NCBI GenBank assembly: GCA_029242945.1
Contig: JAQWSZ010000017.1
Coordinates: 14,970 to 78,969, forward strand
Direction of reading: 5' to 3'
Origin: Gammaproteobacteria bacterium
GTDB lineage: Bacteria; Pseudomonadota; Gammaproteobacteria; Steroidobacterales; UBA11654
Length of the DNA: 64,000 nt
Shown here one piece after another: positions 21,789 through 57,711 of this stretch. How positions within the stretch are numbered: position 1 is the stretch's first letter; every line of letters begins with the position of its first letter. Both the position numbers and the translations under genes were made by a program. Below the pieces are notes generated by a model, which had not been told where the DNA came from, did no database searches, and saw nothing but the letters and a program-made list of their open reading frames with translations.

Positions 21789-21789
21789 T

Positions 21790-22818: not shown

Positions 22819-22923
22819 AAATTAAAATAACTATTTTCATATGCTATATTCATGGTAGTTAATAATCATGAGTATTAAAACTAGAATACGAACAATAACT
22901 TGCAAAAATAAATAATTAATCAT

Positions 22924-23768: not shown

Positions 23769-25064
23769 GTGTATGCTATATATATGAATATTACCTCAGA
23801 TGTACTAGATAATGAATTTTTAGATACAATTGTTTTAAAAGATAGTCCTTATTTTATTACTTTTAGTAAATATCCTGGCTTTAGGTTAAAAGTAAACCCA
23901 AAGGGAAGAATTTCATATATTACATATGGAAGAATACGTTTTGGTGGAAATCCAAGAACAATCACCCATGGAACAACTGTCAAGCTAAGTATTTCAGAGG
24001 CCATTGATAAGCATTTTCAAACACTAAAAATATTATCCAAAGGTTTAGATCCAAATCTGATAAAAAAAACAAAAACTATACAATTTACTGACTCTTTAAT
24101 ATTCAGAGACATTGCAATTCAATTCTTAACTGAAAAAAAGAATAATAAAGAATACTCAGAACTGTATTTTAACCATTGTAAAAATTATCTATTAGGAAAT
24201 AAGTTAAGAGCATTTCATAAACTAAATATCATGTCTATTACTCATAATTTTATCAATGAATGGTATGAGTCTAAATCTAACACCCCCTCTTCTGCTAATA
24301 GTGCAATGAGTTTGTTAGCAAGTATTTTTTCATTTGCTGTAACTAAAAATCTTATAGACTTTCACTCTAATCCTATTAATTTAGTCAATCGCATACAGCT
24401 GAAGTACAGCAATAAGAAAAATAATATTCAAATGGATTTGAAACAGGAGCTACCTAAATTCATTTATCAACTATGGGATCCTTTAAATGTTAATAATGTT
24501 CATGCAATTACTAGGTATGCAATATATATGATGTTAATTACTGGTATGAAGAAAAATGATGTTTTGAAAATGAAATGGAGTCAAGTGAGAGATATGAAAT
24601 TTATTAATATCAAAAAAAAGAATTTCAATCAGCTATTTCCAATTAATAATCATGTTGAGGATATTTTAAAAAAGATGTTATTACTCAGAAGTAAAAGTTT
24701 ACTTCGGAATAAAGGTGATTTTATTTTTTATAATCCTAATGAACCAAGAAAACCACTTTCAAATATTAGAAAATCACTTATTAAATACTCAGTAGATCTT
24801 GATTGGGTTGTATATCCTGAAGCAATCAGGAAAACATTTACTAAAATCATTAATGAGTCATCAATACCAACTCACCACTATTATTACTTACTTGGATTAA
24901 ATAATAAGACTTCATCTTTTAATAGTCTTTCTAATTATAATATTAGCACTATAGAGCTTTCAAGATCCTTAGATGCAGTACATAAAAGATTAGAAAGGCA
25001 TTCACCAATGAACCTCCCTGGTATTGATGAACCCTTAAGATACTTTATAAGTAAAATCACGTAA
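23769..25064 (+). CDS. tyrosine recombinase/phage integrase-like protein with arm-DNA-binding domain and degenerate catalytic residues
   Basis: N-terminal PGFRLKVNPKGRISY...ITHG...LSISEA arm-binding pattern. Box I TGMKKND, box II PEAIRKTF and LLGL...Y. Start may be ATG 23784. Confidence 0.75.
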   Translation: MYAIYMNITSDVLDNEFLDTIVLKDSPYFITFSKYPGFRLKVNPKGRISYITYGRIRFGGNPRTITHGTTVKLSISEAIDKHFQTLKILSKGLDPNLIKKTKTIQFTDSLIFRDIAIQFLTEKKNNKEYSELYFNHCKNYLLGNKLRAFHKLNIMSITHNFINEWYESKSNTPSSANSAMSLLASIFSFAVTKNLIDFHSNPINLVNRIQLKYSNKKNNIQMDLKQELPKFIYQLWDPLNVNNVHAITRYAIYMMLITGMKKNDVLKMKWSQVRDMKFINIKKKNFNQLFPINNHVEDILKKMLLLRSKSLLRNKGDFIFYNPNEPRKPLSNIRKSLIKYSVDLDWVVYPEAIRKTFTKIINESSIPTHHYYYLLGLNNKTSSFNSLSNYNISTIELSRSLDAVHKRLERHSPMNLPGIDEPLRYFISKIT

Positions 25065-26400: not shown

Positions 26401-27795
26401 ATGACAAACAGAAATTTTAGAGAAGTGCTTGATCTTTTGGACCAAAAAGGAGACTTAATCCGAATATCTAAGGAAGTAGATCCTAAATTTGAAATGCCTG
26501 CTTTAATGAAACAATTGGAAGAAGAGGGTAAAGCTTTTATTTTTGAAAATGTAAAAGGTTCGAAGCACCCATCAGTTGGCGGTATTTTTACGACCATGGA
26601 TCGATATGGCTTAATCTTTAATGCTGATGCTTCTGAAAAATATACTTTTGATGAAGCAGGAGGAAGGGTTTTAAGCGGCATTGCACACCCAATAGAAAAT
26701 ATTGTTCTTGATAAAGGGCCTATTTCAGAAGAGAAATTTTTTGATGATGCTATTAATCTAAAGGATTTTCCAGTAGCTACTTTTTTTGAGTTAGATTCGG
26801 GGCCATTCATTACTTCTGCTGTAGGTATTTTTAAAAAACCAAATGGCGTTATTAATGTAGGGTTCTATCGTTGTATGATTGTTGATAGAAATCATCTTCT
26901 GATTAATGCTAGTGGCCTGAGTGATCTTAGAAAAAGCTATGATTGGCATCGAGAAAACAACAAAGAAATGTCAGTAGCTATGGTTATTGGTGCACCTCCA
27001 CCTCTTCTTATGGCGGCAGCTTCTAAATGTCCAGATGATATTTCAGAACTAGAGGTTGCTGGTGGAATGATTGGAAAAGGTATTGAAACAATACTCAGTC
27101 CAAACAGCGGTTTACCGATACCTATAGATTCTGAAATAGTAATTGAGGCAAAAGTTGATTTGCATAATATGGTGGAAAATACTCTCGGTGAATTTGGAAA
27201 CCAGTATGGGACTGAAGTTGCTCCAATGTGTGAAGTGACTTCCATTATGAAGAGAAAAGATGCAATGTTTTATAATGTCATGGCAGGGAGAGCCAAGGAA
27301 CATAATAACTTAGGGTACCTAACTATTTATGGTCTTTCTAAGGGTGTTTGTACAAAAATAAAAGAGAGCTTTTCTTTTGTTAAGGATGTTGCTATTCATT
27401 TTGATACAAAAATAGGACCCTTAATGCATGTTGTTATAGCTATTGAGAAATCTTCAGATAATCAGCCTGAAAAGATTATTAATGAGGCATTTAATTTAAA
27501 TCTAGGCTTCTTTAATCTCTCTTGGATGGCCAAAAGAGTGATAATTGTTGATGATGATATCGATATTAATAATATGGATGATGTCGAGTGGGCTACCTGG
27601 ACCCGCATGGGAAGAGCAGAAAAAATGCATTTATTCTCAGATTTTATTACATGGGAAATAGATAGAGCAGCCTTGCCTGATAAAACCTCTCTTAGAGTAG
27701 GGGTAGATGCTACAAAAGATATGGATTATTTTGATGACCTAGTAAAACCAATAGTGCCAGGTATTGATCAAATTAATTTAAAAGATTATCTTTAA
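26401..27795 (+). CDS. UbiD-family (prFMN-dependent) decarboxylase
   Basis: DSGPFIT, NVGFYR, ENTLGEF (ExxxGE catalytic Glu pair), IIVDDDIDI..DVEWA and GVDAT. Confidence 0.88.
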   Translation: MTNRNFREVLDLLDQKGDLIRISKEVDPKFEMPALMKQLEEEGKAFIFENVKGSKHPSVGGIFTTMDRYGLIFNADASEKYTFDEAGGRVLSGIAHPIENIVLDKGPISEEKFFDDAINLKDFPVATFFELDSGPFITSAVGIFKKPNGVINVGFYRCMIVDRNHLLINASGLSDLRKSYDWHRENNKEMSVAMVIGAPPPLLMAAASKCPDDISELEVAGGMIGKGIETILSPNSGLPIPIDSEIVIEAKVDLHNMVENTLGEFGNQYGTEVAPMCEVTSIMKRKDAMFYNVMAGRAKEHNNLGYLTIYGLSKGVCTKIKESFSFVKDVAIHFDTKIGPLMHVVIAIEKSSDNQPEKIINEAFNLNLGFFNLSWMAKRVIIVDDDIDINNMDDVEWATWTRMGRAEKMHLFSDFITWEIDRAALPDKTSLRVGVDATKDMDYFDDLVKPIVPGIDQINLKDYL

Positions 27796-27815
27796 TGAAT
27801 TAAAGTGAGATACAA

Positions 27816-28874
27816 ATGATTGATCCATATTTAGCAGTAGGCCTGCAAACAAAAGTAAAGCACGTATCAAATCGTGATGACGTTCATATAAACCTCAAGC
27901 ATATAGGCAATATGATCGATATGGTCACACACATGTGTTCACTTGAATTACCTGTTCGTTTAATTGCACTAGGCGAGGGAGCTATACAAGGGTTTGTTGA
28001 TGAGATTCTGGATATGGATCAATCACAATACGCAAATACTATGGCGGCAGAAATACCTGGTTTTGAGACTGACTTCTTAGGCAAATATGCAAAATCCAAA
28101 AAGACTTTTATTATTGGACAACTCAAAGAAAGGCTACCTGAATATAAAGATAGATTTTTCAATACTGTTTTTATTATAGATGACAATGGAGATGTCATTT
28201 ATAAACATCATAAAAATATTGTAGTTTTTGTCGAGCATTCAACAACACCTCATGATGTTTATGATCAATGGATAGAGCAACATGGAGATTCCTTAGAGGC
28301 TTTCTTTCCTGTTGCAAAAACAAAGATAGGAAATATTGCTGGTACAGTGGGTGTTGAGGGTTCATTTCCTGAAGTATTTCGTGCATTTGCCTTAAATGGA
28401 GCAGAAATTTTATATAGAGCATCATTGCCTGAGCCATGGGTATCAAGAGAGATATTTGAAGTGCAGAATAGGTCAAGAGCGATAGATAATACTGCATATA
28501 TGATTGCCCCCAATACGGGTTCCTTAATTATGCCAGGAGAGGATAATGAATCCCCAACAGTCATTGATGGCGCTTTAGGAGGTAGATCATCGATTGTTGA
28601 TTATAAAGGTACTATTTTGGCCAGCAATGATATTGTTGGAGATACCTATGTTGCATCAGAAATTAATATTGATGCATTGAGACATTATAGGGAAAATGCT
28701 CGATTCCAAAATTGGATCCCATATTTAAAAACTGAAATTTTCAGCAAAATGTATGAACAAAAAATTTGGCCAAAAAATTTACCACCAATGAAACATGCTG
28801 ATGCTGGAAAAGTTTTTAAAGAGACTATCAAGAATCTTATTGATAGAGGGACTTACTCTAAAAGAAAAAAATAA
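27816..28874 (+). CDS. nitrilase/carbon-nitrogen hydrolase family protein with catalytic Cys replaced by Gly
   Basis: ALGEGA (Glu), FNTVFIID, KHHK (Lys) and GTVGVEGSFPE...LNGAEI. Clear paralogue of 29643-30782. Confidence 0.82.
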   Translation: MIDPYLAVGLQTKVKHVSNRDDVHINLKHIGNMIDMVTHMCSLELPVRLIALGEGAIQGFVDEILDMDQSQYANTMAAEIPGFETDFLGKYAKSKKTFIIGQLKERLPEYKDRFFNTVFIIDDNGDVIYKHHKNIVVFVEHSTTPHDVYDQWIEQHGDSLEAFFPVAKTKIGNIAGTVGVEGSFPEVFRAFALNGAEILYRASLPEPWVSREIFEVQNRSRAIDNTAYMIAPNTGSLIMPGEDNESPTVIDGALGGRSSIVDYKGTILASNDIVGDTYVASEINIDALRHYRENARFQNWIPYLKTEIFSKMYEQKIWPKNLPPMKHADAGKVFKETIKNLIDRGTYSKRKK

Positions 28875-28877
28875 ACT

Positions 28878-29633
28878 GTGTTACCAAAAGAATTTAAGCC
28901 TAAAGCATCTTATGAGCTTATTCGTTTAGGCAAAGATAACGATGGTGGTTACTTAGTTGAACTAAATTCTATTAAACAATCTAAAAGCTTAATTGCTATG
29001 GGCATGGGTAGGGATTGTTCATTTGAAAATGATTTTATGACAATACAAAATTCTATCATTCATGCTTATGACTATACTGTCACTCCTGTTTTCTGGTTGA
29101 AATATTTTATTAGAAGGATTTTAGCTATTTTTATAGGTAGGATATATGAGCCTTATCAAGGTTTAAAAAATTATTTCAATTACAAATCATTTTTTAAAGA
29201 CCATGCTATTTTTTTTAAAGAAAAGATTGGTTCAGGAGAGAACAATACTACTTCAATATCTGATGCATTTAATAGACTCGGTGAAGAGCAGTTTCCAGTT
29301 TTTTTGAAAATAGATATTGAAGGCTCAGAATATGAAATATTAGAGGAATTGATTTCACTGACTCAAAAAATTTCTGGAATGGTCATTGAATTTCATCAAA
29401 CGGATAAAAAAAGAGATCTTATTAAATCTTTTATAGAAGATGTAGATCTTGAGTTGACTCATATTCATCCTAATAATAATCGAGTTGATGCAAACGGAGA
29501 CCCACTTGCACTTGAGATGACGTTTTCAAGACAGCCTAATAAACTCAGCGATACAGTCACTTTTCCTCATTCTTTGGATCAAATAAACGTTCCTAGAAAA
29601 AATGAAATAAGTCTTAATTTTTTAACTGAGTAA
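28878..29633 (+). CDS. FkbM-like SAM-dependent methyltransferase
   Basis: LIRLGKDNDGGY, FLKIDIEGSEY, IEFH and HIHPNN. Confidence 0.7.
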   Translation: MLPKEFKPKASYELIRLGKDNDGGYLVELNSIKQSKSLIAMGMGRDCSFENDFMTIQNSIIHAYDYTVTPVFWLKYFIRRILAIFIGRIYEPYQGLKNYFNYKSFFKDHAIFFKEKIGSGENNTTSISDAFNRLGEEQFPVFLKIDIEGSEYEILEELISLTQKISGMVIEFHQTDKKRDLIKSFIEDVDLELTHIHPNNNRVDANGDPLALEMTFSRQPNKLSDTVTFPHSLDQINVPRKNEISLNFLTE

Positions 29634-29642
29634 TTCTTAGCT

Positions 29643-30782
29643 TTAGACTTCTTTAGCTTTTTTTATTCGTTTTGTGATTTCTTCACTTACTTCGAATGGT
29701 TTCCAATCAGGAGGAGGAGTGTAAATTCCCATATCAACCATTTTATTGACTTGGTTTTTTACTAATTCCAGCTGACCTTCCTCCGTTAAAGGTGGCTCTT
29801 CAATACATAGATTTTTTGGGTAAATCCCACCTTTTGCCATCATTGCATCATAAATAATTTTGTATTCTTCAACTCTCATATCTTTAGCTAAATTTTGCCA
29901 TTGCCCCCTTACTCTAAAATCACGTAGACCATCTATATTAAGTATGCCACTCACCAAGGCTTCTCCTCCACTCAGATATTCAGAAATAACTTGGCCTCGA
30001 TAATCAATTATTTGACTGCGACCGTTACTCATTTTGAAGTCTTCTCCTCCAGGCATATAAATACCTCCTATATTAGGGGCTACTACATAGCAGGTATTAA
30101 AGATTGCATGAGATTGATTTTGAATCTGATTCATTTGATTACCCATCCATGGCTCAGGATATTGTGATCGATAGATGATTTCAGCTCCATTTAATGCAAG
30201 GCCTCTTGCTGCCTCTGGATAGCTACCTTCAGCACAGATTAGTGTACCAATGTTACCAATTTCAGTTCGTGCAACTGGGTATAATGCTTCTAATAACTTT
30301 TCTGGATCATCCCCATACCTTTCTATGTAAACTTTCCATATATCACTTGGTGCAGTATTAGTTTCTCTCTGGTAGAAAGAAGTTTTGATATGCTGATGAA
30401 TAACATCACCATTGGGGTCAATAATAAAAGCAATATTGAAAATTCTGTCTTTCATGATATCTGGTGCTTTCGCTATCATTTGTGCAATAAGAAAAATGCC
30501 ATGTTCTTTACATATTTTTCCTAAAAACTCAGTTTCTTTTCCTGGGATTTCGGGAACCACTTCTCGAGCAATCCGAATATGTTCATCACCGCCTCCTAAG
30601 CACCAACCCCCAATACCACCCTCTGAAATAGTCACTAATTTTACTGGAAGATCTAGGCTGCAATTCCATACAGCATAACCAATACTTGTTTCTAATCTTT
30701 CTAAGTCTTTCCAATAGTCACTAATATCCAGTGCCATATGGGACTCATTTTGTATTCCTACTGCTGAATATTGAAGCATCAT
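29643..30782 (-). CDS. nitrilase/carbon-nitrogen hydrolase family protein (E-K-C triad intact)
   Basis: TISEGG, FNIAFIIDPNG, HIKT and TLICAEGSYPEAARGLALNGAE. Confidence 0.88.
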   Translation of the reverse strand: MMLQYSAVGIQNESHMALDISDYWKDLERLETSIGYAVWNCSLDLPVKLVTISEGGIGGWCLGGGDEHIRIAREVVPEIPGKETEFLGKICKEHGIFLIAQMIAKAPDIMKDRIFNIAFIIDPNGDVIHQHIKTSFYQRETNTAPSDIWKVYIERYGDDPEKLLEALYPVARTEIGNIGTLICAEGSYPEAARGLALNGAEIIYRSQYPEPWMGNQMNQIQNQSHAIFNTCYVVAPNIGGIYMPGGEDFKMSNGRSQIIDYRGQVISEYLSGGEALVSGILNIDGLRDFRVRGQWQNLAKDMRVEEYKIIYDAMMAKGGIYPKNLCIEEPPLTEEGQLELVKNQVNKMVDMGIYTPPPDWKPFEVSEEITKRIKKAKEV

Positions 30783-30889
30783 AATTTCCTTTTTTTTTAA
30801 TAATAAATAATAAAAATATAGCGTTAACTTGTTAGTATTATTAAAACATATATTAGTGAGTTAACAAGACATACATAATTGAGGATCTT

Positions 30890-32158
30890 ATGAATCAAGA
30901 AAATAGTAATAGTAATCAGGAAAATAATTTAATGCAGTCTTTTCGGCAAATACCAGGATCGTCTTACAAGGTCTTTTTTATCTGCTTAATTGGGGTGACA
31001 TTTGCAAATTTAGATCACTCCATATTTATTTTAGTGAGCGAAAAATTCCAAGAAGATTTTGGCTGGGCACTTACTGATGTGGGATGGTATGTTGCAATCA
31101 CATTTTTTATTTCAGGAATACTTTGCACCCAAGTAGGTGTACTAACTGATCGTATTGGTAGGAAAAAATCATTACTTATTTCAACTTTTTTAACTCCTAT
31201 TTTTGTTGCATACCTAGCTATTGCTCCCAATACACTAGCGGTATTGGCTGCCAGAACATTGGGCTTTACTGCGGCAGGAGCTCAATCTCCCATTACACTA
31301 ACCACAGTAACAGAGTCTTCACCACCAAGATTTAGAGGTCTATTTACAGGAATTCTACAAATTGGTTTTCCATTGGGTTGGTTTTTTGCATCAATCTTAG
31401 TGGTTTTTATGATTGATACTTTAGGAATTAACTGGAGGTATACATTCCTTTTAGCATTTTTATTTGTCCCTTATGGTTGGATTATCCATAAGTATCTACC
31501 TGAATCTAAAGCATGGCTTGCAGCTCAAGATAAAAAAACTGATGATCAACCGGAGCCTAGTACCCTGATATTATTTAATAAAAAATTCAGAAGAAAGACT
31601 TTACTTTTATTCTCTGGCCAATTTTTATATGCATTTGCTTATGGTAGTACCTTAATGTTAGTGCTGTATTTTACACAATCAAGAAATTGGGAAATTGTAG
31701 ATGCAATTAAGATAGTAGGGCTTTCTTATGGAATAGGCTCATTTGGTTATATTGCAGCAGCAATTGTTGGAGAGTTTTTCTTAATAAGAAGAAATACAAT
31801 CATTTTATGGGCACTGCTAGGCGGGCTAGCTTTTATTTATTTAATTTGGTTTGCTGATTCTTGGAATAAGGTTTTGATTAGTTATGGGGTGATGACTTTA
31901 TTTTTTTATGGTGCTTACGCAGTGATGGCAACTTTTATTGCTGAAAACTTTCCAGCTGAGGTTAGAGCAACAGGAGCCAGTTTTTGTGGAACATTGGGGA
32001 TTAATTTAGGCTTCGGTTTAGGCCCACTAGCTATAACATATGCTGCTGTCGCCTATGGTTGGAATATGGCATATACAATAGTTGGCATTATACCTATAAT
32101 TCTTGCAGCTCTTATTTTTCTATTTTTGAAACCTGTGCCAAGAGAGGAAGTATTTTAA
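30890..32158 (+). CDS. MFS transporter (resembles aromatic acid:H+ symporter type)
   Basis: TDRIGRKK motif A, ESSPPRFRG, LPES and AENFPAEVRATG. ~12 TM segments. Confidence 0.88.
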   Translation: MNQENSNSNQENNLMQSFRQIPGSSYKVFFICLIGVTFANLDHSIFILVSEKFQEDFGWALTDVGWYVAITFFISGILCTQVGVLTDRIGRKKSLLISTFLTPIFVAYLAIAPNTLAVLAARTLGFTAAGAQSPITLTTVTESSPPRFRGLFTGILQIGFPLGWFFASILVVFMIDTLGINWRYTFLLAFLFVPYGWIIHKYLPESKAWLAAQDKKTDDQPEPSTLILFNKKFRRKTLLLFSGQFLYAFAYGSTLMLVLYFTQSRNWEIVDAIKIVGLSYGIGSFGYIAAAIVGEFFLIRRNTIILWALLGGLAFIYLIWFADSWNKVLISYGVMTLFFYGAYAVMATFIAENFPAEVRATGASFCGTLGINLGFGLGPLAITYAAVAYGWNMAYTIVGIIPIILAALIFLFLKPVPREEVF

Positions 32159-32191
32159 ATAAAGCTATTTTACTTAGGGATTGAACTGAAT

Positions 32192-33670
32192 TTACGGCTG
32201 TAAGCTTGCTGGTCTCAGTGGCTCAACATGCAGTTCCCAAGCTTCATGATCACCTGGCCCTTGGGGTCCAATTTTACCCTCAGCAGATTGGAGCAATACT
32301 TCTGGATGATGAATTACACCGCCTTTAATTATTAATTTGATATTCCTTGTAGCCTTGATATCTTCAAGTGGATTCCCCTTGATAACGAGGATATCTGCTA
32401 GTTTTCCAGATTCTATAGATCCAATCTTATCGGCAACACCAAGTGCTTTTGCCCCGTTAATTGTAGCTGCTTTTAACACAGCAATATTTGGTAAGCCAGC
32501 GTGCACCATTGCATAGAGTTCACGATGATATGCAAACCCTGGCAATAGAGTTGTATAGACCGGTTCATCCGTTCCTACAATAAGAAGGTTTTCACCGCCA
32601 AACTCATACAGTTTATTCAGCTCAAGGACACGTTGAGCATACTCTATTACATCCGATTCGGGTGGTAGCTCACCTCTTCTCTTAAGCAATTCTTGTGCGT
32701 AGGGTGTAAAGTATTTTGCCTCATTGGTCCAAACCATCTCTGCGCCAAGCTCTTTTCTTAGATTAACTCCTCCATACATTTGCAAGTTAGCGTCATAATA
32801 AACTTGATATTGTAGAATCAAATCAATCATTTGTTCCATATCAGCGCTTTCTTCACCGCCGCTACCCAACGTAATCTGATGTTCAAGACGATCTAGCCCC
32901 ATTAAAATCGCATCTCTAGGATGCACATCATATTCCCATTCATAATTGGCCAGATGTCCTGTTGTTGTCATACCATTTTTATGTGCTTGTTCGATTAAAA
33001 TTTTGGTTTCACCGGGCGTAGCTTGTTTGATTTTGATACTGATGACGCCATGTTTTGACCATTTATCAACTTCAGAACGTATCTCTTTTTCTGAGATATC
33101 ATTTGGCCAAGCAGAGCAATCATCTTCTGCGGTTTTAACACTGTATTCGCATCTAAATCCACCAAAATAGGGTCCGGAAGCGAAAAGCCTCGGACCAATT
33201 GCTTTACCATTGTCTATCAAGTCTCGCTGTTTAAGAACTCGTTCGGGGTAATATTCACCAGCAGACCAGGTTGATGTCACGCCATTTGCCAAGAATATAA
33301 TGCCATTGTTGATCACTTCTTCAGCGCGACCAACATCGACGAGATCAAAATTATAGTGTGCGTGCAGATCAATCATGCCAGGTAAAATCGTTTCAGAGTC
33401 AGCCAGGTCTATAATGTTAGTTTCTAAAAGAACATTCTCATCTATATTTGCATCAATGCTAATAATTTTTCCCTCTCGAATCATAATACCTTTATTTTTT
33501 TTGAGAGAATTACTGATACCATCGAACAACCAACCTCCTCTAATTAAGGTGTCATCTGATGGCGGAATTGACCATTGTGCATATGCATTAGATGATAATA
33601 AGAATAGAATGAGAGCTGATGTATTGATTAACTGAGTAATCAAAAAGTTAATTCTGTAATTAGGCTTCAA
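32192..33670 (-). CDS. secreted amidohydrolase-family metallohydrolase
   Basis: LPGMIDLHAH, GVTS, IKIK, LEH, GTD and GSIESGKLADILV. Probable TTG start at 33670 overlaps the upstream stop and gives a signal peptide ending AYA-Q. Start uncertain. Confidence 0.82.
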   Translation of the reverse strand: MKPNYRINFLITQLINTSALILFLLSSNAYAQWSIPPSDDTLIRGGWLFDGISNSLKKNKGIMIREGKIISIDANIDENVLLETNIIDLADSETILPGMIDLHAHYNFDLVDVGRAEEVINNGIIFLANGVTSTWSAGEYYPERVLKQRDLIDNGKAIGPRLFASGPYFGGFRCEYSVKTAEDDCSAWPNDISEKEIRSEVDKWSKHGVISIKIKQATPGETKILIEQAHKNGMTTTGHLANYEWEYDVHPRDAILMGLDRLEHQITLGSGGEESADMEQMIDLILQYQVYYDANLQMYGGVNLRKELGAEMVWTNEAKYFTPYAQELLKRRGELPPESDVIEYAQRVLELNKLYEFGGENLLIVGTDEPVYTTLLPGFAYHRELYAMVHAGLPNIAVLKAATINGAKALGVADKIGSIESGKLADILVIKGNPLEDIKATRNIKLIIKGGVIHHPEVLLQSAEGKIGPQGPGDHEAWELHVEPLRPASLQP

Positions 33671-36416
33671 TATATTTTTCAAAATCGCATGTGTAGTCAT
33701 GAAAAGTATGATTAGGTTCATAGCCAAAAGGTTTCCAGCCTATATGACCATAGCCTCCAGCAATAGATGTCGGCTTAATTAGCCCACCTGTTTGAACTAC
33801 TGCACCAAAATTTTGTCTATTCCTAAACATCATTGGGTCCCAGCCATGATACATATAAAGCATATTTGGCCCCATGGCTGAAGTGACATGAGCCTGTGCT
33901 ATAAATGAACCAGCCTTATTGTGAACTTTAATGAGTTCACCATCGCTTACCCCTTTATTTTTTGCATCATCAGGGTTTATATAAATATCAGGCTCTCCTC
34001 TTTGTAAGCTGAGTAAGAAACTATCATCTCTCCACATACTATGAATACCATGTCTTGCATGACCCATAAGCATCTTCATGGGATAACCTTTATTAACAAG
34101 TGCATCCTTATGTCTGGGTAAAACTTCATCAAACTCAAAAAACCATTCATGATCAATATAAAATTGTTGTCGATGAGTAAGGGTTTTATAACCAATTTTT
34201 TCATTGACGCTGTCAAAAATATCTGAGTAATAGGGTGATTCCTTACTGTGCATCGTTGTTTCTGAACCCTTGTTTCTAATAAAACCTTTTTCAGCAAGCT
34301 CATCATAAGAGACATTTTGTATGCCACTGGTATTATTGAGAAGAAATTGAATCACTTCCTTAACGGATGTGATGGCTCCATTATCAGTGTAATCATCATG
34401 ATATTTTTTAAAGTCTCTTTTGATTGGAACTCCTATGACATTATCGTCAATTGGTTGGAGATTTCTCTCTTTTGCCCTTTGAGCTATAGCTTTTGTCAGC
34501 TTTTCATAAGCAGCCCAATCATCTATGCATTCTCCTAAGGGTTCAACCGCCTTATCAATCACTTGCATAAAAGGCGTTCTAGGTTCTAAATGAAAATCAT
34601 GTTTTTCATAATGATGTGCTATTGGTAGAACGTAGTCTGAGTACATTGCTGTTGTTCCCATATCAGTTGCAAAAGTGACTATTGTATCTAGTTTACCAAA
34701 GGCAGTTTCCCTCCATCGTTTTCCAGATGAACGCCACGCCGCTGCATTAGTTCCTGAAAATATTCCCATCTTCCATGGAACTTTTGAGTAGTCTGGAAAC
34801 CAACCATTTTTGACAGATTGATTAAAGTAATCATCCATCTCTCCTGCTAACTCTTTGCCATAAATATCTTCATTAAATTCTTTCATATTGGCATGAACAT
34901 AATCCCATCTCGAGAGAGTTGCCACTCTAAAAGCAGCAGCCGGATTTTTCATTGCAAATGGAAATACCGCATCGTCTTTTGCAAGATTTGTAATCGTGAG
35001 GCCTCCACCTTCTTTACCTGTATTACCTGTAATACAGAGTAATAAAAAGAAAGCTCTCTGCAGAAGGTCGCCATGAATATATTTTGAAGCACGATATCCA
35101 GCATAAATCATACTAGGCTTTGCTTTTGCAAATTTTCTAGCTACCTCTCTGATTACTTCAGCATTAATACCGGTAACCTCTTCCGCCATTTCTGGTGTAT
35201 GTTCAGCCGCTCTCCTTTTGGTTAATTCGAAGATGGTTGTCACTTCTACAGGGCCATTATTAGTTTCAACCGTCCATTCTCCTTCTAAAGCTGGATTTAT
35301 GCCTTCCAAGGCAATTGAAGGCATTTCAATCAGATGTTCCGGTGTTCCAGGTGCAACTGGTGGCGTTCCTGTTCCTGGTGCAGCGACTAAAGATTTACTG
35401 GCAAGGTCCCAAACATAGAATAGATTATCTTTTGCATCAGTTGAGCTTCTCAAATCTGTTTCTCTTAAGTATTTAAGATTATCCTTTCTCACCAAAAAGG
35501 GCAGATCTGATTGTTCTTTCATATAAGCAGTGTCGTAAGTTTTATCTTCTAATATCGTATTAACCATAGCCATGGCTAAAGCAATATCACTGCCAGGTTT
35601 AGGATTTAACCACTTACTTGCATGCATTGCAGTAGCATTGAAGTCAGGCGATATTGAAATAACTTCAGTACCATTATATTTGGCTTCCCAGAAAAAATGA
35701 GAATCTGGAATACGAGTTACAGCAGGATTACAAAACCAAATTAAACAGCATTTTGATTTATAGATTTCAGCCATGGTATTGCCCAAAGTGACATGACCAA
35801 ATGTAATGTGTGCACCTGAGAATAAGTCACCAACACCTGCAAATGCTTCAGGCATTTGCACTCCACTGATATTCGCAAATCTTAGTAAGCTAGCATAGGA
35901 TGCTCTTTTCATAACCATTTGCGTACCGAGGCCACAGGTTATGGATTCCGGTCCATGTTCAATACTGTAATCTAGAAATTTATCCGCTACTTCTAACATG
36001 GCCTGATTCCATGTAATTCTTTCCCATTTCCCTTCACCTCTATCACCTACGCGTTTTAGCGGGTAGAGAATCCTTTGTTTGCCATACATGTATCTGGAAT
36101 GGCTCAAACCTTTCTGACAACCTCGGGGACCGTAATCAGGTGCATCACTGGATGTTCCATATTCTCCTTGTTGTTCCTCTCTCCAAACAACCCCGTTCTT
36201 CACAAAAACATTGAATGCGCATTGACCTGTGCAATTGGTTCCATGTGTTGAATGAGTAATGCTATCCCAGGTCCATTTTTTTCTAGCAATGTCTTCCCAG
36301 GATCTGTAATTAATGTTTTTATCTTGAGCAATTACAGCATTCGAATAGTGAAGAGATAGTCCAGCGCCTGCTCCGAGTAAAAAATTTCTTCTAGAGGTTT
36401 TTATCTGTTTATCCAT
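33660..36416 (-). CDS. Tat-exported molybdopterin oxidoreductase alpha subunit, DMSO reductase family type II (EbdA/S25dA/DdhA/SerA/PcrA-like)
   Basis: SRRNFL Tat motif, HGTNCTGQC...PRGCQKG FS0 ligands, GD (Asp Mo ligand), NPAVTRIPDSHF and HGIHS. Confidence 0.9.
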   Translation of the reverse strand: MDKQIKTSRRNFLLGAGAGLSLHYSNAVIAQDKNINYRSWEDIARKKWTWDSITHSTHGTNCTGQCAFNVFVKNGVVWREEQQGEYGTSSDAPDYGPRGCQKGLSHSRYMYGKQRILYPLKRVGDRGEGKWERITWNQAMLEVADKFLDYSIEHGPESITCGLGTQMVMKRASYASLLRFANISGVQMPEAFAGVGDLFSGAHITFGHVTLGNTMAEIYKSKCCLIWFCNPAVTRIPDSHFFWEAKYNGTEVISISPDFNATAMHASKWLNPKPGSDIALAMAMVNTILEDKTYDTAYMKEQSDLPFLVRKDNLKYLRETDLRSSTDAKDNLFYVWDLASKSLVAAPGTGTPPVAPGTPEHLIEMPSIALEGINPALEGEWTVETNNGPVEVTTIFELTKRRAAEHTPEMAEEVTGINAEVIREVARKFAKAKPSMIYAGYRASKYIHGDLLQRAFFLLLCITGNTGKEGGGLTITNLAKDDAVFPFAMKNPAAAFRVATLSRWDYVHANMKEFNEDIYGKELAGEMDDYFNQSVKNGWFPDYSKVPWKMGIFSGTNAAAWRSSGKRWRETAFGKLDTIVTFATDMGTTAMYSDYVLPIAHHYEKHDFHLEPRTPFMQVIDKAVEPLGECIDDWAAYEKLTKAIAQRAKERNLQPIDDNVIGVPIKRDFKKYHDDYTDNGAITSVKEVIQFLLNNTSGIQNVSYDELAEKGFIRNKGSETTMHSKESPYYSDIFDSVNEKIGYKTLTHRQQFYIDHEWFFEFDEVLPRHKDALVNKGYPMKMLMGHARHGIHSMWRDDSFLLSLQRGEPDIYINPDDAKNKGVSDGELIKVHNKAGSFIAQAHVTSAMGPNMLYMYHGWDPMMFRNRQNFGAVVQTGGLIKPTSIAGGYGHIGWKPFGYEPNHTFHDYTCDFEKYIEA

Positions 36417-36442
36417 AAAGCTAATTTAACATAAAGTTCCTT

Positions 36443-37084
36443 TTAAGAGTTATGTTGCCCAGGAATAACTAATATTTTTCCGCTTGCTTGACCAATTGCA
36501 AACTCAACTAAATTCATTCGATCATTGCCAAAAAACATTTTATCTTCAACAAACATAGTAGGTGAGCCAAAACCACCTCTATTAATTAATTCTTGAGCAT
36601 TACTTTTTAATTCTTTTTCATAATGACCAGTTTCAATTACCGCTCTAAATTCTTTTTTATTCAAATCTAATTTTTCAGCTATTTCTAGTAATATCTCTAT
36701 ATTTGAAATATCTAAAGACTCTCCAAAATAAGACTGGAATACCAACCCACTGTATTTGTAGATCTTTCCTTTTTCTATTGCGTAGAGAGCACCTTGGAGT
36801 GCTTTTTTTGAAACTTCATGTCCTATATCTTTTTGTATTTTAATTTTTAGACTGCAATAATTGGCCCAATCTTGAAGGTCTTTGGTTTGATAATTAGACA
36901 CTGCTGGAAGAGTCTCTGTTAGTTTTTTCTTAATCAATGAACGGATTAGAGTGATTTCAATTGGTTTCCAGTTTATTAGAGATGCAGTTCTTAAAACAGT
37001 TTGGTTGAGTCTTTTGTAGCTGAGATATGTCCATGGACAAGAGTAATCATAGTAATAATCAACTGTAATTTGTTTTTCAGCCAT
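36443..37084 (-). CDS. DsbA-like kappa-class GST / 2-hydroxychromene-2-carboxylate isomerase family protein
   Basis: YYDYSCPWTYL and RGGFGSPTMFV...FFGNDRM. Confidence 0.85.
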   Translation of the reverse strand: MAEKQITVDYYYDYSCPWTYLSYKRLNQTVLRTASLINWKPIEITLIRSLIKKKLTETLPAVSNYQTKDLQDWANYCSLKIKIQKDIGHEVSKKALQGALYAIEKGKIYKYSGLVFQSYFGESLDISNIEILLEIAEKLDLNKKEFRAVIETGHYEKELKSNAQELINRGGFGSPTMFVEDKMFFGNDRMNLVEFAIGQASGKILVIPGQHNS

Positions 37085-38616
37085 CAGCTTATTTTTCTTA
37101 ATTCTGTTTTTAATACTTTTCCATTGGCATTTCTTGGTATTGAGTCAATATGAGAAATGATTTTAGGAATTTTAATTTTCGAAATCTTGCCTTTGCAGAA
37201 TTTTTCTAAATCTTCTTGTTTAAGGGGTTTTTTATTTTTTGTTACAACAAAAGCTTTCAATGATTCACCCCATTTTTCATCAGCAATACCAACAACAGCA
37301 ACATCTGTAATATCAGGATGATCATATATTACTTCCTCTATTTCCCTAGGGTAGATATTGATCCCCCCTGAGATAACCATATCTTTCTTGCGGTCAACAA
37401 TATAGAGATAACCGTCCTCATCTTTTTTAGCCAGATCACCCACCGTAAGCCATCCTGACTGAATCGCTTCGTCAGTTTCTTCTGGTCTATTCCAATAACC
37501 ATTGAATAAATAAGGGCTAGTTGAAAATAGTTCTCCAACTTCTTCAGGACCACATTCTTCGCCTTCTTCATTGAGAATCTTTATCGATGTTAATGGAAAA
37601 GCTTGGCCAACACATTGTTGTTTTCTTAATTGATCTTTTGGTCGGAGATTGGATATGATTCCTCCTTCAGTTGAACCATAGGTTTCATGAAGCATTCCTT
37701 CTCCAAATGTTTCAACTATATCTTCTTTAATTTTTTGTGGAAGAGCAGCAGCATTTGAAATAATGGTAGATAAAGATTCACTATAGTTATTAGTCAGCAA
37801 GTTTTTTTCTAAACCAAGGATTCCATGAAAATGCGTAGGAACTCCAAAAAACCCCGTGATGTTTTCTTCTTTGAAGGTTTTAACTATGAGTTCAGGGTTA
37901 AACCCATCCATAATTTGTGCGTAACCTCCGAAGAAAATTGGTGCCAATGAAAATATCATTCCAGCACCATGACACATAGGAGCTATAGCTAAAAATCTAT
38001 CATCAGGAGAATAACATCCATATTCAACAGCCATTGCAAATAAAGTGAGGATTCTGGATCGGTGAGGAACTAAAACACCTTTTGGCTTTCCTGTTGTGCC
38101 TGATGTATAAGGCATAGTAAAAACATCCCATTCTTGAACAAGAGGTATTTCATTATTTGGTCTTGATAGTTGCATCCAGTTTTCAAGTTGAGTTTCAATA
38201 ATTATAATTTTCTTAACGGTTTCAAAGTCATAATCCAGAAGCGAGGCTGAATTAGCTTGATCTGTAAACAGTATATTGGCCTGCGCATCATCACAAATGG
38301 CCTTAATTTCTGGTGCTGAAAGTTTAGGGTTAATGGTAGCTATTGGCACGCCTGCTTGTGACGCACCTAAAATAATTTCCATATATTCAATTGAGTTGCT
38401 AGCAACAATCGCGATGTTATCTTCACTGCTCAAGTTAAAATCATGTATTAAGCCATTAGTAATAATATCCATTCTATTAACAAGAGCACGATAAGTTCTT
38501 TCATTGTCCCAATGCTTTAAAGCAATTTTTTCAGGGTTTCTTGACATAGCCGCTCTAATGCCACCAGCAATGGATAAATGTCTGAATGTTTTGGGTATTT
38601 GGGTCAAGTCAGCCAT
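37084..38616 (-). CDS. acyl/aryl-CoA ligase (ANL adenylate-forming family)
   Basis: YTSGTTGKPKG, YGSTEG, TVGDLA, DRKKDMVISGGINIYPREIE and PRNANGK. Confidence 0.92.
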   Translation of the reverse strand: MADLTQIPKTFRHLSIAGGIRAAMSRNPEKIALKHWDNERTYRALVNRMDIITNGLIHDFNLSSEDNIAIVASNSIEYMEIILGASQAGVPIATINPKLSAPEIKAICDDAQANILFTDQANSASLLDYDFETVKKIIIIETQLENWMQLSRPNNEIPLVQEWDVFTMPYTSGTTGKPKGVLVPHRSRILTLFAMAVEYGCYSPDDRFLAIAPMCHGAGMIFSLAPIFFGGYAQIMDGFNPELIVKTFKEENITGFFGVPTHFHGILGLEKNLLTNNYSESLSTIISNAAALPQKIKEDIVETFGEGMLHETYGSTEGGIISNLRPKDQLRKQQCVGQAFPLTSIKILNEEGEECGPEEVGELFSTSPYLFNGYWNRPEETDEAIQSGWLTVGDLAKKDEDGYLYIVDRKKDMVISGGINIYPREIEEVIYDHPDITDVAVVGIADEKWGESLKAFVVTKNKKPLKQEDLEKFCKGKISKIKIPKIISHIDSIPRNANGKVLKTELRKIS

Positions 38617-38622
38617 AATTAA

Positions 38623-39477
38623 TTAATCAAGGTTAAATACTTTTATAGCATTGTCTCTCAGCATCAGTTGTTTTGATTCTTCTTTCAGGTTTAAGTTATC
38701 AACCTCCTCAATTGCTCGAATGGGGTCAATCACTGGCCAGTCTGTGCCAAACATTACCTTATGGCTTCCATATGAGTTTGCATAATGAACAAAAGATTTA
38801 GGCCAATATTTAGGAGCATAAGCATCGCCTGCTGTATATATGTTTTCATGCTTCCAGCACATAGAAATCATTTCTTCTGTCCAAGGTATACCTATATGAA
38901 TTCCAATCAATTTAAGTTCTGGGAAATCAATAGCAACTTGATCTAGTAATATGGGCCTAGCTACGCTTGGCAGTCTTCTGTTTTTGGAATAGATTAGATT
39001 ATGACCAACTTGCATCATAATAGGGATATTAAGTTCACAGCACTTTGCATAATAGGGATAATACTTTCTATGATCCGGTGGTAATTCACACCAATGTGGG
39101 TAGAGATGAGCTCCAACAAAACCAAATTCATTAACAGCTTTCTCTAAATCTTTGAGGCCAGACATTCCTCTAAAAGGGTCTATTCCTGCTAAACCAGAGA
39201 ATCGTTCTGGGTGTTTAGTACAAACTTCATGCACTCTTTCATAAGGCACTTCAAATGATTCCGGCATTCTGATATCGCCAGCTCGAACAGCAATCAAAAG
39301 AGATCTTTCTATGCCTGCTGTATCCATCTTTTCTAGATACTGATCAACACTAACACCGCCTCTCATCTCTTTAGGCATTCTTACTTGTTCTTTAAAGTTT
39401 TCGTCTAAACCCGTTTGTCCAAGTTTAACTTCTTGTGGTGTATATAGGTTAACAACAATGTCAATTGTTCCGCTCAT
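38623..39477 (-). CDS. amidohydrolase_2 family protein
   Basis: HPERFSGLAGIDP, YYPYYAKC.EL.IP, FPELKLIGIHIGIPW and KVMFGTDWP. The usual N-terminal HxH is replaced by DIVVN. Confidence 0.85.
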   Translation of the reverse strand: MSGTIDIVVNLYTPQEVKLGQTGLDENFKEQVRMPKEMRGGVSVDQYLEKMDTAGIERSLLIAVRAGDIRMPESFEVPYERVHEVCTKHPERFSGLAGIDPFRGMSGLKDLEKAVNEFGFVGAHLYPHWCELPPDHRKYYPYYAKCCELNIPIMMQVGHNLIYSKNRRLPSVARPILLDQVAIDFPELKLIGIHIGIPWTEEMISMCWKHENIYTAGDAYAPKYWPKSFVHYANSYGSHKVMFGTDWPVIDPIRAIEEVDNLNLKEESKQLMLRDNAIKVFNLD

Positions 39478-39504
39478 GATAAAAATTCCAAGTATTTAAG
39501 GACT

Positions 39505-39542
39505 AAATTATAATACTTATCAAGTGATAAGTATTATAATTT
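39505..39542. repeat. perfect 18-bp inverted repeat (2-nt spacer)
   Basis: AAATTATAATACTTATCA-ag-TGATAAGTATTATAATTT in the 80-bp gap between the cupin and amidohydrolase genes. Confidence 0.85.
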
Positions 39543-39557
39543 CTTAATAGTTTCTTA

Positions 39558-40463
39558 TTATTGACCGTCTAGATCCCATGGACCTGTTGATTTGGAACGC
39601 ACTGGCAATCCTGCCATAACAGGACCTTGTGTTTTAGGATCATAATTAACCGCATCGCCTTTTACGATGACTTGTGAATTTAGAGTTACCCAATTGATAA
39701 GAGCACCATCTAGCCTAAATATCCAGCTTGCTCCCATTTCCTCACCAGTAACAAAATGGCCATGTTTAACTTTAGCAGGTCTGAAAAAATAGGTTCCTGG
39801 TGTAAATCGACCAAAATTGTAATCAAGGTGTCCAGTTAAAGTATAAGCTTCTTCAAAAATTGGATGATGGATTAGCCTATCATCTGTCCAACCAGGGGGA
39901 GCCCAACCAAGCATGGTAATAAAACCTTTTTCATTTTCACCTTCTGGTGAAGGATCATGATAGAGAATTTTCAGCTGAAGGAATCGTTGCGTATCACCTT
40001 CATAGATATTATCCATCCAATCCATTTTTGTAGAGTCACATATAGTTAAGCTTCCATGTTGATCTGAGCCAGTGTTTCCTCCCTCAGGGATAAATTCACT
40101 TTGATTGGCTTCTGAGACAGAGAAACCCCAATCTCCATATTCTCTAAAGAGAAGTATTTCTGTTCCTGCATCAACGGATATTTCAGGGACTCTAAGGCCA
40201 GCAGGAGCTCTCCAATACATTCCAGGCCCAAATATTTGATCGCCCATTTTAACTTTACCTTCAAGTACGAACCATTCAGTATCAGCTTCATGATAACCAC
40301 CCGGTCTATCCCATACGGTCTCAAATATAATTTTTGTTGAGCATGACCCATCTTCTTCATCATAAGAAAGATTTCGTTGCATTGCTCTTCCTGTTCCCCC
40401 ATGCATTTCTGCAGGGTGCCAACATAGATCACTTTGCTGTATCAGTTCTACATGTGGTCTCAT
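39558..40463 (-). CDS. bicupin protein (DUF4437/ChrR-like cupin)
   Basis: Two cupin repeats: GYHEADTEWFVLEG...GMYWRAPAG and HHPIFEEAYTLTG...PGTYFFRPAKVKHG. Confidence 0.7.
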   Translation of the reverse strand: MRPHVELIQQSDLCWHPAEMHGGTGRAMQRNLSYDEEDGSCSTKIIFETVWDRPGGYHEADTEWFVLEGKVKMGDQIFGPGMYWRAPAGLRVPEISVDAGTEILLFREYGDWGFSVSEANQSEFIPEGGNTGSDQHGSLTICDSTKMDWMDNIYEGDTQRFLQLKILYHDPSPEGENEKGFITMLGWAPPGWTDDRLIHHPIFEEAYTLTGHLDYNFGRFTPGTYFFRPAKVKHGHFVTGEEMGASWIFRLDGALINWVTLNSQVIVKGDAVNYDPKTQGPVMAGLPVRSKSTGPWDLDGQ

Positions 40464-40525
40464 AATATTTCCTTTTTGAAATTAAGTAAGGTTAGAATAT
40501 ATTAAACTTTTTATTTGATAAAGAG

Positions 40526-40554
40526 TTGTCAAAATATTTTCATTAAATGATAAT
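40526..40554 (+). promoter_or_regulatory. candidate sigma70 promoter for the 40585 ORF
   Basis: TTGTCA-17 nt-GATAAT, followed by GGAG before the ATG at 40585. Confidence 0.45.
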
Positions 40555-40584
40555 CATATATATTGATAATTTTGGAGTAAAAAA

Positions 40585-40860
40585 ATGTCAGAACAAAATC
40601 TTTCCTGGTCTGGTGTCAATGTAACAGTCACAGAGGAGTATCTAGATTTAACTCGCGTTTCAGTCAGTATGGAGCAAAGCAGAGCTTTTAGAGCATGGCG
40701 AATTCCTAGAGCAATAGAATTAGCTCAGAGAAATTTGGAAGCACTTGAGGCTGATAATACATCTGAAGAAGCACAAGCCATGTTAACTATGTATATTGGA
40801 GAACTCTTTTGTTGGCAAGAGGATGGCGAATTAGTAGAGCCTAAAGTCACGACAAACTAA
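40585..40860 (+). CDS. hypothetical acidic protein (91 aa)
   Basis: GGAG RBS, fills the gap between neighbours, no family recognised. Confidence 0.7.
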   Translation: MSEQNLSWSGVNVTVTEEYLDLTRVSVSMEQSRAFRAWRIPRAIELAQRNLEALEADNTSEEAQAMLTMYIGELFCWQEDGELVEPKVTTN

Positions 40861-40882
40861 AAATAATTGGGGGAGATTGAAG

Positions 40883-41551
40883 ATGGAAGAATATGAGATT
40901 TGGAAGTTTTTACATATCTGTATGTTTGTTTTCTGGTTGGGTACCGATGTTGGAGTAATGCTTTGCAGTAAGAAATCAACAGACCCTACTTTGGGAGTTG
41001 AAGCTAGATTTAAGATGTTGGAGATGGCTCTAATTATTGAGCTTTTACCAAGAGTCATGTGGGTTATGGCATTACCTTTAGGCGTTCATCTATCAAAATC
41101 TCTTGGCTACCTGGATCCAAGCATTACAACATTAGTAATGATGTGGGCGTTTATTATTGTCTGGTTGATCGTGAATGTAGGTGGAGCCGCTAATCTTGAA
41201 AAGCCATGGGGCCAGCAGCTGTCTAAAATTAATAGAATTATAATCGCTTCCCTAGGAGTGGGTTTAATTATAGTGTCCATTTCATCTTTCATGGGTATGG
41301 GACCTTATGAGGCAAACTCTATTGCACTAAAAGTAGGATTATATGGTCTTGTTAATATTACAATTCTAGGCATTGAGATTGCATTCTTTCCACTTGGCTT
41401 AGCTTTTGAAAGACTGGCATCTGAAGGCTCAAGCCCTGATATCGAAGAGTCTATTAGTTCAGGAATGAGAAAAACATTGGCTTGGGTCCATACAACTTAT
41501 TTTTTAATCTTTATAGTTGCATTTATTGGCGTTACTAAAATAGTGGGTTAA
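40883..41551 (+). CDS. hypothetical multi-pass membrane protein
   Basis: ~6 hydrophobic segments with KFLHI...WLGTDVG at the N-terminus. GGGGAG RBS favours ATG 40883. Confidence 0.8.
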   Translation: MEEYEIWKFLHICMFVFWLGTDVGVMLCSKKSTDPTLGVEARFKMLEMALIIELLPRVMWVMALPLGVHLSKSLGYLDPSITTLVMMWAFIIVWLIVNVGGAANLEKPWGQQLSKINRIIIASLGVGLIIVSISSFMGMGPYEANSIALKVGLYGLVNITILGIEIAFFPLGLAFERLASEGSSPDIEESISSGMRKTLAWVHTTYFLIFIVAFIGVTKIVG

Positions 41552-52237: not shown

Positions 52238-52239
52238 GT

Positions 52240-53598: not shown

Positions 53599-53614
53599 GT
53601 CCAATTGCTCAGTC

Positions 53615-57704: not shown

Positions 57705-57711
57705 TTATTCA

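Follow-up and report, generated by a model that had tools for sequence, protein, structure and literature searches.

A conserved marine gammaproteobacterial gene cluster with an uncharacterised type II molybdoenzyme clade and a cysteine-less nitrilase, probably serving N-heterocycle breakdown

The breakdown of picolinate and nicotinate follows a pattern of an Amidohydro_2 decarboxylase, a molybdenum (Mo) hydroxylase and maleamate steps, and imides and maleamates arise from oxidised pyrroles and also from pyridines. EBDH-like type II molybdoenzymes have a Lys bonded to the Asp ligand (PMC6153880), S25DH enzymes share partner beta and gamma subunits among their alphas, with fewer beta genes than alphas in S. 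denitrificans (PMC6016249), pyrrole-2-carboxylate is reported as a substrate of some UbiD enzymes (PMC7976604), and a nitrilase subunit without the catalytic Cys can determine the specificity of its active partner, as in grass NIT4A/B and in engineered Cys-to-Ala variants (PMC6214922). Here we analyse a gene cluster at positions 26401 to 41551 of a 64,000-nucleotide stretch of gammaproteobacterial DNA (the window; contig JAQWSZ010000017.1), which includes a type II molybdoenzyme, a UbiD homolog, a coenzyme A (CoA) ligase, a bicupin and two nitrilase-fold proteins. The cluster is an ancient, vertically kept module of about ten genes found in two families of uncultured marine Gammaproteobacteria; it is conserved, undescribed, probably catabolic and built from known protein families. 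It probably breaks down an N-heterocyclic carboxylic acid, and the gene content points, tentatively, to pyrroles derived from tetrapyrrole pigments, such as bilins or chlorophyll catabolites, as the leading candidate substrate.

The window is contig C27 of a genome (G000) of 1.48 Mb with 35% guanine plus cytosine (GC) and an estimated completeness of 92%. The nearest titled loci, with nitrilase NitB 87–95% identical, are marine metagenome-assembled Gammaproteobacteria, one of them labelled uncultured Woeseia sp. The genes of the span are as follows.

26401 to 27795, plus strand: UbiD-family (de)carboxylase, with Pfam UbiD domains and PDB entry 6h6x as top match
27816 to 28874, plus strand: NitA, nitrilase fold, Glu54 and Lys133 present, Gly179 at the catalytic Cys position; always directly behind ubiD
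28878 to 29633, plus strand: FkbM-like methyltransferase (Pfam), a passenger of variable presence in the inter-nitrilase slot
29643 to 30782, minus strand: NitB, nitrilase-family amidase-like protein, Glu-Lys-Cys183 triad intact by structure matches and orthologue alignment
30890 to 32158, plus strand: MFS transporter (Pfam, NCBIfam), nearest to aromatic-acid/H+ symporters, score below cut-off
32192 to 33727, minus strand: Amidohydro_1 protein (Pfam), a passenger, probably exported (signal peptide judged by eye)
33660 to 36416, minus strand: type II DMSO-reductase-family Mo alpha subunit with Tat signal, of an uncharacterised clade (NCBIfam, alignment, tree)
36443 to 37084, minus strand: DSBA/kappa-GST-like thioredoxin-fold protein (kGST; Pfam), single Cys in a C-P-W motif
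37084 to 38616, minus strand: AMP-forming acyl-CoA ligase (Pfam AMP-binding)
38623 to 39477, minus strand: Amidohydro_2 TIM-barrel hydrolase/decarboxylase (Pfam)
39558 to 40463, minus strand: DUF4437 bicupin (Pfam), first gene of the minus-strand run
40585 to 40860, plus strand: 91-residue protein (orf91), family not recognised, own family only
40877 to 41551, plus strand: six-helix membrane protein, CopD/DUF2269-like, invariant His13 (atlas score, alignment)

The minus-strand run thus reads from 40463 to 32192 as bicupin, Amidohydro_2, ligase, kGST, Mo alpha and Amidohydro_1. An earlier sequence-only reading had named this run together with the MFS transporter, two CN-hydrolases, UbiD and two genes lacking a Pfam match, all of which are real and belong to the families it gave; the FkbM-like gene was absent from its list, and it overlooked the Cys-to-Gly change in the first nitrilase; activity of both nitrilases is not supported. 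Its remark that the window holds no regulator agrees with our scan of 23 window proteins (the remaining window proteins lie outside that scan). No protein encoded in the span scores above an NCBIfam equivalog cut-off, those of described pathways included, in line with its statement that it knew of no described pathway with this gene set.

We compared the cluster within the family of the host genome (f1, hereafter the own family) and in a second family (f16); f11, f12 and f22 denote other families. In the own family the gene order is fixed: membrane protein/orf91, cupin-amidohydrolase-CoA ligase-kGST-alpha, MFS, nitB, nitA-ubiD and adh3-integrase (14 of 14 fetched loci, wherever the contig extends far enough). 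The five-gene run from cupin to alpha is intact in 18 of 21 f16 genomes and broken in 3 (one duplicate locus counted once; the open reading frame picker did not resolve the kGST slot in 3 genomes). The genes therefore occur together and in order in both families, and are not the random junkyard that the sequence-only reading had set as its alternative. Mo alpha is present in 19/19 own-family, 2/2 f16 and 1/1 f12 genomes, and in 0/38 other genomes of the order that were searched; full-length NitA, at an identity of at least 63%, is found in 29 of 36 f16 genomes. Eighty metagenome loci show the same arrangement as the genomes. The ratio of nonsynonymous to synonymous substitution rates (dN/dS), calculated against two relatives, is 0.01–0.10 for the core genes and 0.22 for kGST, showing purifying selection.

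Other genes of the span are less constant. The FkbM-like gene occurs in 10/14 own-family loci (48–54% identity) and was not seen across the f16 loci, and the Amidohydro_1 gene occurs in 2/14 own-family loci; given this patchy presence we rejected both as core members, and the secreted amidohydrolase loses the membership it had been assigned from the sequence. An MFS gene is present in 14/14 own-family loci, and f16 often has other MFS types instead. Orf91 (11/14 own-family loci, dN/dS 0.04–0.09) has no atlas match and is found in the own family only. A small f16 protein of unrecognised family (c8; L133:5541-5936 and 13 more f16 loci) is encoded between the nitrilases or just upstream of the cupin; the host genome has a weak match only (E = 0.002), and the own-family cluster lacks c8.

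The sequence-only reading had called the span an island. We reject a recent genomic island: the GC content (36.4%, versus 34.8 ± 1.8% in 193 15-kb genome windows) and the GC3 of the span genes (0.21–0.33, versus 0.25 ± 0.04 for the genome) are within the genome range, no att-like repeats stand out around the span, 14/14 own-family relatives carry the cluster at the same site, and the neighboring integrase is inherited. This integrase-like gene (window 23769–25064) is found in 9/14 own-family loci at 40–79% identity with a dN/dS of 0.15; its motifs appear degenerate by eye, which suggests a domesticated recombinase. Contigs from RNA libraries of four studies span pieces of most genes, many of them mismatch-free, and the integrase bin is almost empty; these contigs hold no information on level or strand, and DNA carry-over is possible. 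The DNA-type run X19 covers part of the stretch only, at depth 2, and adds nothing.

The Mo alpha subunit carries a Tat leader (S-R-R-N-F-L) and an FS0 motif (H-x3-C-x3-C...C) at position 58. Its Asp197 aligns with the Mo ligand of PcrA and EbdA, and Lys445 occupies the position of a His in NarG and PcrA. Aromatic residues that precede the Asp ligand in PcrA, the best-scoring PDB match (4ydd/5e7o), are missing. The protein scores 872 bits against TIGR03479, under the curated cut-off of 985, and 441 of 2000 bits against the EbdA hidden Markov model; it is 34% identical to ClrA and PcrA-like proteins and 30–32% identical to EbdA-like ones. In our trees, which leave out DdhA and SerA and in which the EbdA-like references are two unnamed proteins, 31 alphas form a single clade with a long stem (support 100/100). 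A mixture-model tree places this clade as sister to the two EbdA-like proteins (84/81), outside the EbdA clade and at most its sister. The alpha is an uncharacterised, separate clade of the Clr/Ebd lineage. Its best 120 database relatives are 56–100% identical, and those with names are uncultured Gammaproteobacteria. In the available portions, a paper on planktonic Woeseiaceae mentions neither a molybdoenzyme nor aromatic catabolism (PMC12175321), and PMC10100899 does not list an alpha clade of this kind.

No beta, gamma or delta gene adjoins Mo alpha. We ruled out that beta or molybdenum cofactor genes are missing: contig C36 encodes a second alpha (55% identical), a beta above cut-off, a delta, moeA and an MFS-cytochrome c fusion, and moaA is found on contig C23. 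A haem-b gamma (EB_dh, PF09459) was not found in the 92% complete genome. Because these partners are present on C36, because beta and cytochrome c genes lie inside the cluster in 2 f16 genomes, and because subunit sharing is documented for S25DH, Mo alpha probably uses the C36 beta, chaperone and cytochrome c in trans. The membrane protein at 40877 is a conceivable gamma substitute; fold searches with it returned no match at E ≤ 0.001 and generic bundles only. Each 1.5-Mb genome encodes two to three alpha paralogues with varied active-site loops, and nitrilase-fold genes abut paralogous alphas in 4 loci. A third alpha paralogue (L059:7439-11408, L061, L062, L063) is paired with a Glu-Arg-Ser nitrilase-fold gene; the copies in L059 and L061 have Arg instead of His in FS0. 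In a 1237-residue database protein (P0056), a C-terminal portion of the CoA ligase is continuous with Mo alpha, kGST being absent; it is either a fusion or an assembly/calling artefact.

NitA is a naturally Cys-less nitrilase in which the loss is fixed: Glu, Lys and Gly occupy the triad positions in 37/37 distinct orthologues. A dN/dS of about 0.04 rules out a decaying pseudogene. UbiD is encoded directly upstream of NitA in 19/19 f16 loci. NitA shares 39–40% identity with its active paralogue NitB, which retains the complete Glu-Lys-Cys triad (Cys kept in 49/49 orthologues) and whose closest solved structures are formamidase and aliphatic amidase. Four nitrilase-fold relatives beside other alphas have Glu-Arg-Ser, with Ser and Arg replacing Cys and Lys, and a Cys-independent chemistry of NitA is therefore possible. 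Plasmid-borne relatives of NitB (35–41% identity) and of the cupin (27–28%) are in uninformative contexts.

UbiD has three UbiD domains and conserves Arg157 and Glu264 in 31/31 orthologues and Glu259 in 23/31. Its best PDB match (6h6x, E = 4e-43) is the furoate decarboxylase HmfF, and it scores 237 bits against TIGR00148 (cut-off 245). The window contains no ubiX, as had been noted from the sequence; the genome does, above cut-off at G000:C15:65418, which excludes that the gene is missing altogether. In the bicupin, His200, Glu204 and His234 of the C-terminal cupin are invariant. Fold searches return 2qdr as best hit, and the nearest well fitting characterised chain is ureidoglycine aminohydrolase (4e2q; TM 0.58, r.m.s.d. 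4.9), so C-N hydrolysis is as likely as dioxygenation. Distant cupin homologues (46–48% identity) have maleate-isomerase-like neighbors in 4/5 loci, one of which also encodes a cyclic amidohydrolase and an isochorismatase. Kappa-GST/HCCA isomerases have a DSBA fold with a catalytic Ser before Pro; the kGST of the cluster contains a DSBA domain, has Cys in place of this Ser in 75/77 aligned homologues and matches no NCBIfam model. Amidohydro_2 is 72–78% identical between the families, and its matches include LigJ/LigY/LigW-type aromatic enzymes. Compared with HemJ/CopD/DUF2269-type haem- or metal-binding membrane proteins, the membrane protein reaches an atlas score of 0.95 and has one invariant His; its best fold match is a designed helical bundle (Z 12.3, r.m.s.d. 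2.6, 142 aligned residues), its gene is divergent from the cupin in both families, and no viral relative was found.

These assignments are compatible with the following route. The Tat-exported Mo alpha, with beta and chaperone from C36, would act in the periplasm, hydroxylating the substrate with water and passing electrons to a c-type cytochrome rather than to a haem-b gamma subunit. The MFS transporter would import the product, and the CoA ligase would activate a carboxylate side chain; Amidohydro_2, the bicupin and NitB would open the ring and release ammonia via imide- or maleamate-type intermediates. The single-Cys thioredoxin-fold protein might then isomerise a cis-unsaturated product, and UbiD, using prenylated flavin mononucleotide made by the distant ubiX product, would remove CO2. 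NitA would associate with NitB or UbiD as a subunit that has no catalytic role. The sequence-only reading had proposed degradation of an N-containing aromatic or heterocyclic compound; its nitrogen part finds indirect backing in the C-N hydrolases, the heteroaromatic-type UbiD and the imidase- and maleate-isomerase-like neighbors, and the substrate itself is deduced from gene content.

A tetrapyrrole origin of that substrate is suggested by genes of two bilin-reductase-fold families in the relatives, bilin reductase (FDBR, Pfam Fe_bilin_red) and RCCR. A Fe_bilin_red gene directly follows alpha in 5 of 20 f16 genomes chosen independently of FDBR and in 2 more chosen because of it. Among the non-f1 metagenome loci with a visible post-alpha slot, 4 of 19 have it there; the gene scores 51–71 bits (cut-off 31) and matches PebB/PcyA. 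An RCCR-fold gene is found by the ubiD end in 5/21 f16 genomes from 4 genera, with a sixth case 4 kb away. By itself this gene stays under the Pfam cut-off, and its profile matches only RCCR in the PDB (E = 1e-5; hhalign 97.7%). Either gene is present in 10/21 f16 clusters, versus 2–4% expected by random placement, a comparison in which kin are not independent. RCCR homologues occur in 13/13 f1, 34/36 f16 and 16/20 f22 genomes, sporadically in five more families, and in 0/400 other genomes of the phylum. In three of the sporadic families, all 10 RCCR-positive genomes carry the cupin family (23/107 genomes do), corresponding to about three genus-level events. In locus L228 FDBR is flanked by paralogues of the cupin, Amidohydro_2, UbiD and the membrane protein, and in L253 RCCR lies inside a ubiX/UbiD module; elsewhere FDBR and RCCR genes sit beside VanA-type Rieske oxygenases.

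Related loci were seen as well. Downstream of an RCCR homologue in the host genome (G000:C6:2521-5856, L271) lie genes for a two-component system and a 2Fe-2S ferredoxin, a context kept in many f16 genomes. Bilin-reductase-like proteins with a weak C-terminal PCP_red match lie beside VanA-type Rieske genes (L234:8039-8956, L241:8032-8925), one of them in an own-family genome. A catabolic island in family f11 (L248, L249) combines two RCCR homologues, a third RCCR-fold gene, a Rieske oxygenase and MFS transporters. G000:C5:60430-79677 (L267, L268) encodes three VanA-type Rieske oxygenases, HpaB, DUF1838 and MFS proteins, and a fourth Rieske protein on G000:C22 (L007) is accompanied by a UbiD paralogue and a flavin monooxygenase.

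Several observations weigh against pigment pyrroles as the substrate. A bilin-reductase-fold gene is found in none of 55 own-family loci (14 genome, 41 metagenome), the window included, and PaO (PF08417), haem oxygenase and Fe_bilin_red have no match in the 92% complete host genome, whose Rieske proteins are VanA-type and lack the PaO domain. The adjacency of FDBR reduces to one gain and one loss within a single alpha sub-clade, or about one event, and most fetched FDBR and RCCR loci lie away from the cluster. RCCR is common in f22 (16/20), yet the two f22 genomes that were tested lack alpha. The Asp105- and Glu154-equivalent positions are catalytic acidic sites; the linked FDBR lacks the former, and the RCCR homologue lacks an acidic residue at the latter. 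The roles of these residues are given in PMC13446030, and some active pre-PcyA enzymes also vary at acidic positions (PMC10151467, PMC13446030). Pyridine breakdown is just as typically marked by steps of the maleamate type, and for the Mo enzyme a placement as sister to ClrA, which shares Lys445, is not rejected (p-AU 0.27). That abundant marine Gammaproteobacteria with streamlined genomes mineralise chlorophyll- and haem-derived pyrroles, with the cluster as ring-opening core comprising a gamma-less Mo clade on cytochrome c and a Cys-less nitrilase subunit, and RCCR/FDBR-fold proteins acting upstream, is possible but on the unlikely side.

The same architecture could instead process a pyridine-type or small N-heterocyclic acid (picolinate, nicotinate, N-methylpyridinium betaines, pyrimidine or imidazole derivatives) via maleamate, the FDBR/RCCR genes being guild co-residents. 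Several f16 loci have isochorismatase and PuuE-like genes added to the cluster, a xanthine-oxidase-family Mo enzyme adjoins it in 2, and both these and the imidase/isomerase neighbors, as well as the own-family clusters devoid of FDBR/RCCR, would fit such a substrate. To our knowledge, however, pyridine hydroxylases are cytoplasmic xanthine-oxidase-family enzymes rather than Tat type II enzymes, no nic/pic equivalog is among the NCBIfam matches, and the two bilin-reductase-fold families in the cluster would be left unexplained, and we hold this reading to be possible but on the unlikely side. An N-free substrate, either an aromatic or a terpenoid acid (alkyl-phenol, coumarate/furan type), on which the C-N hydrolases would cleave thioesters or C-C bonds, would agree with the EbdA-like sister clade, the 6h6x match of UbiD, the aromatic-acid-type MFS and the LigJ/LigY/LigW-type matches of Amidohydro_2; it is highly improbable, as NitB, the ureidoglycine-aminohydrolase-like bicupin and the imidase/isochorismatase neighbors point to C-N cleavage.

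Two further readings question whether the genes form one pathway. The cupin-to-alpha run and ubiD-nitA with nitB could be separate modules merely kept close, with NitA having its own Cys-independent chemistry, for example tautomerisation or carbamate decarboxylation. The two halves lie on opposite strands, separated by a variable slot, some f16 genomes have ubiD-nitA at a distance from the cupin run, and the Glu-Arg-Ser relatives by other alphas would suit such chemistry; the halves nevertheless lie within about 20 kb in most f16 and all f1 loci, and the four loci in which nitrilase-fold genes abut paralogous alphas tie the families together, which makes separate modules unlikely. It is very improbable that the Mo enzyme serves energy metabolism as a sulfur or oxyanion oxo-transferase (dimethyl sulfide dehydrogenase-, chlorate- or selenate-reductase-like) while its neighbors act on unrelated compounds: the higher identity to ClrA/PcrA-like than to EbdA-like proteins and the ClrA features given above speak for it, but the varied active-site loops of the paralogues in each genome fit organic substrates better, the PcrA aromatic residues are missing, and the gene is fixed in co-transcription behind a CoA ligase. 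Breakdown of an N-heterocycle, with pigment pyrroles as the leading candidate, is the reading we prefer.

Elsewhere in the window, a Rieske protein (choline/betaine monooxygenase-like), an NmrA-like protein, an SDR and formaldehyde dehydrogenase adh3 (20931–23679) flank the cluster only in the own family. A flavin-reductase-like protein (3101–3925) has a short C-terminal extension that looks PCP_red-like by eye. Puu-like polyamine utilisation genes lie at 50145–59682 with a long flavoprotein, a paralogue of which occupies the inter-nitrilase slot in several relatives.

Our literature search, which covered papers outside subscription journals and without supplements, returned no paper describing this gene set, none on DUF4437 or on tetrapyrrole/porphyrin degradation in marine bacteria, and none describing bacterial RCCR homologues, a pyrrole-2-carboxylate UbiD/maleamate route, a chlorophyll maleimide/imidase or a Woeseia molybdopterin enzyme. 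Because strong selection maintains this module, along with two such Mo enzymes and four UbiDs, in a genome of 1.5 Mb, the host must profit from a substrate that is common in the ocean. Should this be pigment pyrrole, these would be the first candidate genes for microbial tetrapyrrole ring breakdown, a route not found in the literature searched; even otherwise, the module brings to light an uncharacterised clade of type II molybdoenzymes and a nitrilase subunit that naturally lacks Cys. The alpha clade comprises more than 120 protein clusters at an identity of at least 56%, and surveys could mislabel it as dimethyl sulfide dehydrogenase or nitrate reductase.

Compared with known systems, the alpha resembles EbdABCD (2ivf), S25DH1-8 and p-cymene dehydrogenase in being a Tat-exported type II subunit with FS0, the Asp ligand and the Asp-bonded Lys, and S25DH also in having several alpha paralogues with fewer beta genes and in lacking the active-site His. 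It differs from EBDH-like hydroxylases in forming its own clade at 30–32% identity, in lacking gamma and in sharing an operon with a cytoplasmic CoA ligase and C-N hydrolases. ClrA, PcrA, SerA and DdhA belong to the same lineage, whereas the cluster has no PcrA aromatics, gamma or chlorite dismutase and has catabolic neighbors. Furan (hmf) and pyridine (nic/pic) clusters follow a similar plan, in which a decarboxylase (UbiD or Amidohydro_2) is combined with a CoA ligase, a Mo hydroxylase, a ring hydrolase, an MFS transporter and maleamate/maleate steps, but their Mo enzymes are cytoplasmic members of the xanthine-oxidase family, and they are not known to include a DUF4437 cupin, a kappa-GST-like protein or a nitrilase lacking Cys. 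As in the plant PAO/RCCR pathway and the bacterial pre-PcyA bilin reductases, relatives of the cluster carry RCCR/FDBR-fold genes, and a ferredoxin is encoded near the RCCR homologue of the host; unlike there, PaO, haem oxygenase and a globin/V4R context were not seen and one of the two acidic positions is missing in each protein. According to the available portions of PMC10151467 and PMC13446030, these known systems end at linear tetrapyrroles and leave the pyrrole rings unopened. Finally, in contrast to grass NIT4A/B and engineered Cys-to-Ala subunits (PMC6214922), the Cys loss in NitA is natural and fixed in bacteria, and NitA is transcribed with ubiD, not with NitB.

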